Assembly: GCA_964654205.1 (NCBI GenBank)
Contig: CAZZHR010000001.1
Location: 65,953 to 129,952 of the forward strand
Reading direction: 5' to 3'
From: an uncultured Candidatus Saccharibacteria bacterium
Lineage (GTDB): Bacteria; Patescibacteriota; Minisyncoccia; Phycocordibacterales; UBA2100
DNA length: 64,000 bases
Below, one piece after another: positions 31,849-32,073 of the stretch. Numbering within the stretch: the stretch's first letter is position 1; each line of letters begins with the position of its first letter. The notes beneath the pieces were generated by a model. The model was given only the letters and a program-made list of their open reading frames with translations. It was not told the origin of the DNA and made no database searches. Both the position numbers and the translations under genes were made by a program.

Positions 31849-32073
31849 TCACCTCGTCTTCGTGGTCTTCTTCGCAGGGACGCGCCGCGGCTGATCCACG
31901 GGGCACACTTTAGTGCCCATACACTTGTTGTAGCACACCTGTGCGGCGCGGGTATTCGCCGCGCAACCGCCCCGAACGCCGCCACAGACGGTCGTGCAGT
32001 GGCCGGGGGTGCGCCCCCAGGACTCGGTAGGAATGAGGAGGCTGAGAGTTCCGAACAGCAGAAGAGCTTTCAT
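31849..32073 (-). CDS. Cysteine-rich small secreted peptide (74 aa; Sec-type signal plus 54-aa mature region with 6 Cys, Lys/Arg-rich tail)
   Basis: MKALLLFGTLSLLIPTESWG leader. Mature 'HCTTVCGGVRGGCAANTRAAQVCYNKCMGTKVC'. AGGAG RBS 6 nt upstream. Own terminator. An operator-like palindrome lies just upstream. Confidence 0.6.
   Translation of the reverse strand: MKALLLFGTLSLLIPTESWGRTPGHCTTVCGGVRGGCAANTRAAQVCYNKCMGTKVCPVDQPRRVPAKKTTKTR

Follow-up and report, generated by a model that had tools for sequence, protein, structure and literature searches.

The stretch of DNA analysed here (the window) comprises 64,000 nucleotides (nt) of contig CAZZHR010000001.1 from an uncultured Candidatus Saccharibacteria bacterium (assembly GCA_964654205.1). 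The element in question is a small reverse-strand gene encoding a 74-amino-acid (aa) pre-protein with six cysteines, hereafter the six-Cys gene or peptide; its features and neighbours are listed in Table 1. A first-pass annotation made from the letters of the window had described it as the gene of a secreted, defensin- or bacteriocin-like mini-protein with a Sec signal, its own ribosome-binding site (RBS), a dedicated intrinsic terminator and an operator-like palindrome. The secreted six-cysteine mini-protein stood up to the analysis; the defensin or bacteriocin likeness and the operator regulation found no support. Translation of the open reading frame (ORF) gave a sequence identical to the one quoted in that annotation, and the AGGAG motif is present 6 nt ahead of the ATG. 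The dedicated terminator was also recovered as a strong hairpin with a T-rich tail: a consensus scan picked up a terminator-like hairpin at 31812..31791, and the 79 nt located 3' of the stop codon have a folding energy of -32.3 kcal/mol (z = -5.2), a value that none of 200 shuffled sequences reached. A strong 3' hairpin followed by a T-run also ends the orthologues of the six-Cys gene.

The palindrome of the leader occurs a single time in the window, for a chance expectation of 0.03 matches, and the 52-nt leader that includes it folds as RNA at -16 kcal/mol (z = -2.1). Its sequence is absent from two related loci (L004 and L005), in which the same position, just ahead of GAGGAG, is occupied by GGTGCT-gcgg-AGCAC(C/T), a leader hairpin of 6 bp and of different sequence that folds like shuffled sequences (z = -0.96). 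The six-Cys gene of these two loci has a TTGACA-18-TATAAC promoter, GAGGAG and a terminator. No sigma-70-like promoter was found for the six-Cys gene by the consensus scan of the window, and no regulator gene lies near it. The window palindrome is possibly an operator or a 5'-leader RNA hairpin, either one; the inverted repeat reported earlier is real and perfect, operator regulation is unsupported and the repeat sequence is not conserved. Neither an Rfam scan nor a tRNA scan of the window gave a hit.

Table 1. Coordinates of the six-Cys gene, its sequence features and the genes around it (positions in the window unless a locus is named)
Feature	Position	Strand	Evidence or remark
Coding sequence of the 74-aa pre-protein, stop codon included	31849..32073	-	exact protein on two independent Logan contigs and in an NCBI record
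RBS (AGGAG), 6 nt 5' of ATG at 32073	32080..32084	-	sequence read directly; GAGGAG at the equivalent place in orthologues
Predicted Sec-type signal peptide, residues 1-20 (MKALLLFGTLSLLIPTESWG)	32014..32073	-	heuristic; cleavage inferred after SWG
Conserved six-Cys core, residues 26-58 (CTTVCGGVRGGCAANTRAAQVCYNKCMGTKVCP)	31900..31998	-	15-sequence alignment; AlphaFold pLDDT 81-86
Variable C-terminal tail, residues 59-74 (VDQPRRVPAKKTTKTR)	31852..31899	-	net charge +5 here; alignment; modelled disordered
Predicted intrinsic terminator: GC-rich hairpin and T-rich tract	31775..31812	-	consensus scan, inverted-repeat scan, folding
11-bp perfect inverted repeat across the stop codon, inside the folded 3' region	31819..31857	-	inverted-repeat scan
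Perfect 9+2+9 palindrome GTACCGATA-nn-TATCGGTAC, lying 3' of the presumed promoter and 5' of the RBS	32090..32109	.	inverted-repeat scan
Second palindrome CATGACGTCATG, in the 124-bp divergent intergenic region	32132..32143	.	inverted-repeat scan
Cys/His-rich protein of about 405 aa with N-terminal membrane anchor, divergent from the peptide gene	32198..33415	+	29-30% identical orthologues
513-aa polytopic membrane protein	33421..34962	-	
SagD-family YcaO	34964..36604	-	PF02624 1e-44, TIGR03604 3e-52
SagB dehydrogenase	36483..37250		TIGR03605 2e-38
Phosphoribosyltransferase/PQQ-like beta-propeller fusion	37229..38959	-	
88-aa ORF, window copy of the other small-ORF family	38994..39260	+	beyond it: 391-aa protein, TPR protein
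Other small-ORF family, copies in related loci	L036 16435..16944 (-); L047 1913..2242; L012 6810..7199; L015 4892..5197; L004 13632..13874; L005 9810..10037; and others		

Homologues were collected by an exhaustive phmmer search over 1.84 billion representatives, which gave six sequences (E 1e-13 to 2e-5), followed by a profile search with the alignment of the matches, after which the family counted 15 proteins, window copy included, with lengths of 69-99 aa (15 clusters among 5.8 billion). A scan of 185,579 species-representative genomes with the peptide alignment gave one match, in a Candidatus Paceibacteria genome (L005), and a first metagenome scan with the same alignment gave no match. 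Ten positions are invariant in the 15-sequence alignment (C26, C30, C37, C47, N49, C51, M52, G53, C57 and P58) and G32, G35 and G36 are nearly so. The spacing of the core, C-x3-C-x6/7-C-x9-C-x3-C-x5-C, is invariant as well, with the signature CxNxCMGxxxCP; no such conservation across the 15 members is seen in the first 20-50 residues or in the C-terminal tails. When the codons of the 33-residue core in the window were compared with those in seven other loci, they gave a proportion of synonymous differences (pS) of 0.67-0.95, near saturation, and a proportion of nonsynonymous differences (pN) of 0.13-0.36, that is pN/pS of 0.13-0.46, a pattern read here as purifying selection on the protein. 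The opposite explanation, a chance reading frame in GC-rich DNA that codes for nothing, could appeal to the shortness of the ORF, to the lack of a name in any source and to a word-indexed homology search with the 74-aa peptide that returned only the query itself. It is given virtually no credence in the face of 14 homologues with an invariant 10-residue signature, of the purifying selection, and of an RBS, a terminator and a kept gene position that all suit a real gene. The first-pass annotation had named a non-conserved ORF or frameshifted homologues as the outcome that would speak against it; the 14 homologues and their invariant signature are the reverse of this, and the six-Cys ORF is a genuine gene.

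Signal peptides were called in the 15 members with a home-made heuristic that looks for a positive charge in the n-region, for Kyte-Doolittle (KD) hydrophobicity in an h-region of 7-15 residues, and for small residues at -3 and -1 in the c-region. The window copy has an n-region of charge +1, an h-region LFGTLSLLI with a KD value of 2.29, and a putative cleavage point between SWG and R with small residues at -3 and -1. All 15 members show the same layout, with n-region charges of +1 to +3, a 9-residue hydrophobic maximum of KD 2.3-3.6, and small -3/-1 residues (mostly of the AxA-Q type) between the h-region and the first conserved cysteine, which agrees with the Sec signal claimed for the window copy. 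Neither a lipobox nor a twin-arginine motif is visible in the aligned N-termini of the 15 members, 13 of which have no cysteine ahead of the conserved core, and the h-regions of the family are considered too short for a membrane anchor. The signal is assigned to the Sec type because a conserved mature domain follows a fast-evolving hydrophobic N-terminus. SecY is encoded within the window.

The structure was modelled with AlphaFold2 on the 15-sequence alignment. The mean predicted local distance difference test score (pLDDT) was 69, with core residues 21-60 at 81-86; the model contains two helices (23-29 and 42-52), is free of strands, and shows signal and tail as disordered. Each helix bears one CX3C pair, C26-x3-C30 on helix 1 and C47-x3-C51 on helix 2. 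Because the two CX3C pairs fall on the two predicted helices, the core is probably a disulfide-stapled helix-loop-helix hairpin with a third cystine; from the model, the pairing would be C26-C51 and C30-C47, plus C37-C57 linking the Gly-rich loop to the invariant C-P. The family can thereby be defined in testable terms, by its core of 33 residues, by ten positions that do not vary and by the predicted fold.

Comparison with known peptide families was largely negative. The window peptide has no match in Pfam, NCBIfam or PADLOC; a PDB sequence-profile search with the peptide family gave no significant match, nor did BFVD give any, and tblastn searches of plasmids and phages found no match to the peptide. 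In a Pfam scan of the 15 members at E<=1, at most two members matched any one family, and the best stray matches were to Conotoxin (0.0035) and Defensin_big (0.035), in one member each. No description of the motif, nor of Cys-rich secreted peptides in these bacteria, was found in the literature. A defensin or knottin fold is disfavoured because the model is all-helical; membership among the knottins, and the defensin- or bacteriocin-like character first proposed, find no backing in homology or fold. The closest architecture is that of the alpha-hairpinins, short secreted plant peptides with C-X3-C...C-X3-C on a helix-loop-helix and two disulfides (PMC7191063), among them EcAMP1, MBP-1, VhTI, BWI-2c and Luffin P1. 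The window peptide resembles them in having a CX3C on each predicted helix. They are plant peptides with four cysteines, whereas the window family is bacterial and has six invariant cysteines, the CxNxCMGxxxCP signature and a 16-residue Gly-rich segment between the two motifs that holds a fifth cysteine. No homology or fold match to alpha-hairpinins (PDB 2L2R, 2PLX, 2LQX and others) was detected, and the likeness, which depends on the model, is taken as one of architecture that does not imply homology.

Two other groups of small proteins were compared in the same way. In small Tim chaperones and Cox17-type proteins, two helices with Cys pairs on one face form two disulfides after translocation into an oxidising compartment, small Tim proteins having the same CX3C inter-helix disulfide geometry. 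The window peptide is predicted to share with these twin CX3C/CX9C proteins the two helices that each bear a Cys pair. It gave no hidden Markov model (HMM) match to them, and they are eukaryotic proteins of the mitochondrial intermembrane space, imported without a cleavable Sec signal and with longer helices. Class II bacteriocins of the enterocin P type are small, cationic and disulfide-stabilised, carry a Sec signal instead of a double-glycine leader, and are encoded by stand-alone genes with a terminator. The window peptide is likewise small and cationic, with a Sec-type signal and its own terminator; it differs from them in having no YGNGV or other bacteriocin motif and in that its charge is not family-wide. 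No immunity or transporter gene is recognisable beside it, the neighbours being the 405-aa protein and an unconserved 61-aa ORF, and neither the peptide nor its neighbours have a match in Pfam, NCBIfam or PADLOC.

The reading that we favour, with a probability of about 0.6, is that the gene encodes an exported, disulfide-stapled six-Cys mini-protein of a rare unnamed family that is not a substrate of the YcaO/SagB pair encoded nearby. The pre-protein would be exported by Sec, and signal peptidase I would cleave it at a predicted site near residue 20 to release a mature peptide of about 54 residues. Its 33-residue core would then fold as a helix-loop-helix in which C26/C30 and C47/C51 form two inter-helix disulfides and C37, in the Gly-rich loop, pairs with C57 of the invariant C-P. 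The product would be a compact, protease-resistant extracellular mini-protein with a floppy, lineage-specific tail that is strongly basic in this genome. It could act as an extracellular binding or inhibitory effector, the tail sticking to anionic cell-surface material, and might possibly (on slight support) work with the adjacent 405-aa surface protein. An extracellular disulfide-stapled mini-protein with a binding or inhibitory function is our best guess as to its role; the conserved cystine framework, the Gly-rich CGGxxGGC loop and the CxNxCMG face suggest a rigid scaffold that presents a specific surface for binding. The window copy is strongly cationic (core +4, tail +5), which suggests adhesion to anionic surfaces or membrane activity in this genome, and an antimicrobial role is only a guess.

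Several observations weigh against this reading. The disulfide pairing was deduced from helix positions alone, the mean pLDDT of just 69 was obtained from a shallow alignment (15 sequences), and the signal call comes from a heuristic, not a trained predictor. The closest orthologues have a core charge of 0 and a tail charge of +1 to +2, the tail charge across the family ranges from -1 to +5, and three members, with a charge of -1, have no tail beyond the core; because positive charge is not conserved, an antimicrobial action based on charge is not a family property. The link between the peptide and the 405-aa protein may be lineage-specific or coincidental, because the members found outside the candidate phyla radiation (CPR) sit in unrelated contexts. 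A SagB-family gene also lies within about 5 kb of the peptide gene in two of the three long loci (the window and L005). The six-Cys proteins are best described as a rare family, new in itself but of a generally familiar kind, and nothing yet points to an unusual mechanism. The small secreted proteins of CPR bacteria are almost entirely uncharacterised and are the likeliest mediators of host attachment or attack. This peptide is small enough for chemical synthesis, and its basic form in this genome makes surface-binding and antimicrobial tests straightforward; if its function proves ordinary, for example that of a structural envelope peptide, it would be a modest addition to the catalogue of unnamed families.

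The window is chromosomal, and the gene belongs to a lineage-specific block of about 16 kb that is flanked by EF-Tu (25119..26318) on one side and ribosomal protein L3 (42699..) on the other. The peptide was found in four CPR loci, namely the window and three single-cell genome contigs (L003, L004 and L005) that presumably belong to the Mercer Subglacial Lake set described in PMC12361377. In all four, the 405-aa protein or its homologue is encoded divergently from the peptide, the orthologues of the three contigs being 29-30% identical to the window protein (E about 1e-47). Nearby in these contigs are orthologues of the phosphoribosyltransferase/pyrroloquinoline quinone (PQQ)-like propeller fusion (44%), of the 513-aa protein (49%), of the 391-aa protein (50%) and of the tetratricopeptide repeat (TPR) protein; together with the 405-aa protein these make up a conserved envelope cluster. 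The 405-aa protein has no match in Pfam, NCBIfam or PDB, the word-indexed search returned only the query, and a reference-genome scan found no match. This unnamed family has about 10 invariant cysteines and an HG-x-GH motif, and its members occur as tandem paralogue pairs in L004 (7649..8665 and 8685..9914) and in L005 (3823..4842 and 4862..6091), where a DCC1-like thiol-disulfide oxidoreductase adjoins each pair.

A metagenome scan with the 513-aa family gave 60 further loci (L010-L069), whose six-frame ORFs were searched by profile and by single sequence. The 513-aa family is 40-57% identical across them, many being from 0.1-um-filtered groundwater. Among the 60 loci the PQQ fusion was found in about 20, the TPR protein in about 12, a 391-like gene in about 8, YcaO in 6, and the DCC1-like oxidoreductase, SagB and a 405-like gene in 3 each; the six-Cys peptide was found in none. 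The PQQ fusion is the commonest neighbour of the 513-like gene. The family members outside the CPR cluster are on short contigs, where their neighbours are a gamma-glutamyl transpeptidase, a Lon fragment and a PsiF-repeat protein. Because these distant members adjoin unrelated genes, the domain can work without the 405-aa/513-aa cluster, and the family is probably not confined to CPR bacteria. The six-Cys peptide is a rare, previously unnamed family and, within the widespread cluster, an accessory gene limited to some lineages.

The 513-aa protein has a Cys-containing extracytoplasmic C-terminal domain. It has no Pfam match even at E<=10, a PDB profile search gave nothing significant, and its single-sequence model (pLDDT 44) was too poor to use. 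A relationship to vitamin-K carboxylase/HTTM proteins was considered because some motifs resemble theirs; alignment of the 513-aa profile to residues 63-523 of the human vitamin-K carboxylase (hhalign) covered 32 columns only, with an E-value of 0.12, and the relationship is not claimed. Small secreted Cys-rich ORFs unrelated to the six-Cys peptide are located beside 513-like genes in several loci, at L018 1980..2363 (also in L019, L020 and L029), L036 1724..2002 (-), L065 859..1113, and L066 11742..11999 and 12576..12839. They include a 127-aa ORF between two 513-like paralogues and a 92-aa ORF with a repeated C-x3-C-x3-C. This hints that the 513-aa membrane-protein family often travels with exported Cys-rich peptides.

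Alternatively, the peptide may be a dedicated small subunit, ligand or substrate of the envelope cluster instead of a free-acting effector. Its place inside the cluster and its divergent arrangement with the 405-aa homologue in 4 of 4 CPR loci are in keeping with this, as are the other, unrelated Cys-rich ORFs adjoining 513-like genes, such as that of L018. Against it, 60 loci have the cluster without the peptide, three of them with a 405-like gene, and outside the CPR no cluster gene is found on the members' contigs, which are short; we regard it as unlikely, though deserving some weight. The peptide could also be an exported metal- or cofactor-binding or redox module serving the 405-aa protein, its six thiols binding Cu, Zn or Fe-S together with the invariant Met and Asn, for which the twin-Cx9C copper chaperones provide a model. 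Six invariant cysteines with an invariant methionine, a divergent partner rich in invariant Cys and His with its HG-x-GH motif, and the DCC1-like oxidoreductase nearby in L004 and L005 would suit such a role, and many CPR habitats are low in oxygen. The CX3C pairs on two helices, however, have the classic geometry of inter-helix disulfides, as in the alpha-hairpinins (PMC7191063), the conserved core is without His, and no metal-binding family was matched. The signal is of the Sec and not the Tat type, which would mean export in an unfolded, cofactor-free state, and this module is accordingly considered unlikely and given little weight. A more far-reaching reading, which we consider improbable, makes the peptide the exported effector of an ultra-small episymbiont and a bacterial equivalent of plant alpha-hairpinin toxins or inhibitors; the 405-aa and 513-aa proteins would mature it or display it on the cell surface, and CPR bacteria would have exchanged it horizontally with other bacteria of soil or groundwater. 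In the strongest version of this reading, the 513-aa protein would be a distant vitamin-K-carboxylase-like enzyme modifying or folding exported Cys-rich peptides, as SdpB reportedly does for SdpC in Bacillus.

The remaining explanation takes the peptide as a thiazole/oxazole precursor, whose N-terminus would be a leader for YcaO/SagB and whose Cys and Thr would become azoles, not disulfides. The YcaO/SagB pair is 3-5 kb away, with YcaO on the same strand as the peptide gene, a SagB-family gene lies about 5.3 kb from the peptide gene in L005, and Cys, Thr and Gly are abundant in the core, which contains GGC; a short ORF with these residues near a YcaO/SagB pair is also what microcin B17/streptolysin S-type precursors look like. 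Those precursors differ from the window peptide, whose N-terminus is Sec-like and which does not co-occur with YcaO across loci. The hydrophobic Sec signal is present in 15 of 15 members, and to our knowledge such an N-terminus is unlike azole-peptide leaders. The 6 Cys of the 33-residue core are mixed with conserved non-modifiable residues. An oppositely oriented gene separates the peptide gene, with its own RBS and terminator, from the YcaO operon; L004 has the peptide and no YcaO/SagB in the 10 kb upstream and 8 kb downstream; in L005, a transposase and a RelE toxin lie between SagB and the cluster; and distant family members adjoin unrelated genes. The peptide was found in 0 of 6 other YcaO-containing related loci by HMM and six-frame regular-expression searches of 610 kb, the latter finding the Cys pattern only in loci already retrieved by peptide-based look-ups or the A2 scan. 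Moreover, a different small-ORF family adjoins YcaO in L036 and L047 and has a copy in the window. Co-occurrence and N-terminal architecture thus led us to reject the 74-aa peptide as a YcaO/SagB substrate, a role that is very unlikely, and the proximity of the pair is misleading for the six-Cys peptide.

The YcaO/SagB pair of the window is divergent in sequence; the YcaO stop codon is 2 nt ahead of the start codon of the 513-aa gene, and a similar adjacency of YcaO and 513-like genes is found in L023, L024, L030, L047 and L053. The other small-ORF family occurs in 15 loci, its usual place being between a 513-like gene and a 391-like gene, and is laid out as an N-terminal transmembrane segment, the motif A-x-A-D-[VI]-P and an acidic Gly/Asp/Ser/Cys tail. 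The L036 tail contains 22 Cys and 21 Ser/Thr, a classic azole-precursor composition, and the tail of the 88-aa ORF of the window ends in ...GDGGCGCDGSDGSGGDGSDGG. Judged by sequence, this family of CPR bacteria is so far undescribed and a candidate for azole-peptide precursors, or alternatively for acidic surface peptides. YcaO/SagB is an independent, occasional add-on to the cluster, for which this small ORF is a likelier partner than the six-Cys peptide. The idea that the Cys/Ser content of the small-ORF tail tracks YcaO/SagB was dropped, as it holds for the window and L036 and fails for L005 (SagB, no Cys) and L047. In L005 (105..3364), the contig edge carries a SagB-family gene; between it and the conserved cluster lie a REP-associated tyrosine transposase and a toxin of the RelE type, an arrangement that suggests a mobile insertion at this place.

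Downstream of the six-Cys gene, the second signal-peptide ORF reported in the first-pass annotation at 31487..31687 does exist, with a likelier start at 31672: the ATG at 31672 is better supported than that at 31687 because AAAGGAG sits between the two. The resulting ORF (31487..31672, reverse strand) encodes 61 aa, with the signal peptide MREKMALLLALGVVAATPLVHA followed by QQ..., and was called in the same way in L002; it has no counterpart in any related locus. An 11-nt string, CATGAAAGGAG, precedes both this ORF and the six-Cys gene. Elsewhere in the island between EF-Tu and L3, two Gly_rich_2 (PF21722) proteins of about 595 aa (22606..24393 and 29389..31179) and a 333-aa protein (41217..42218) are scattered, which have in common a C-terminal domain of about 130 residues with 33-39% identity.

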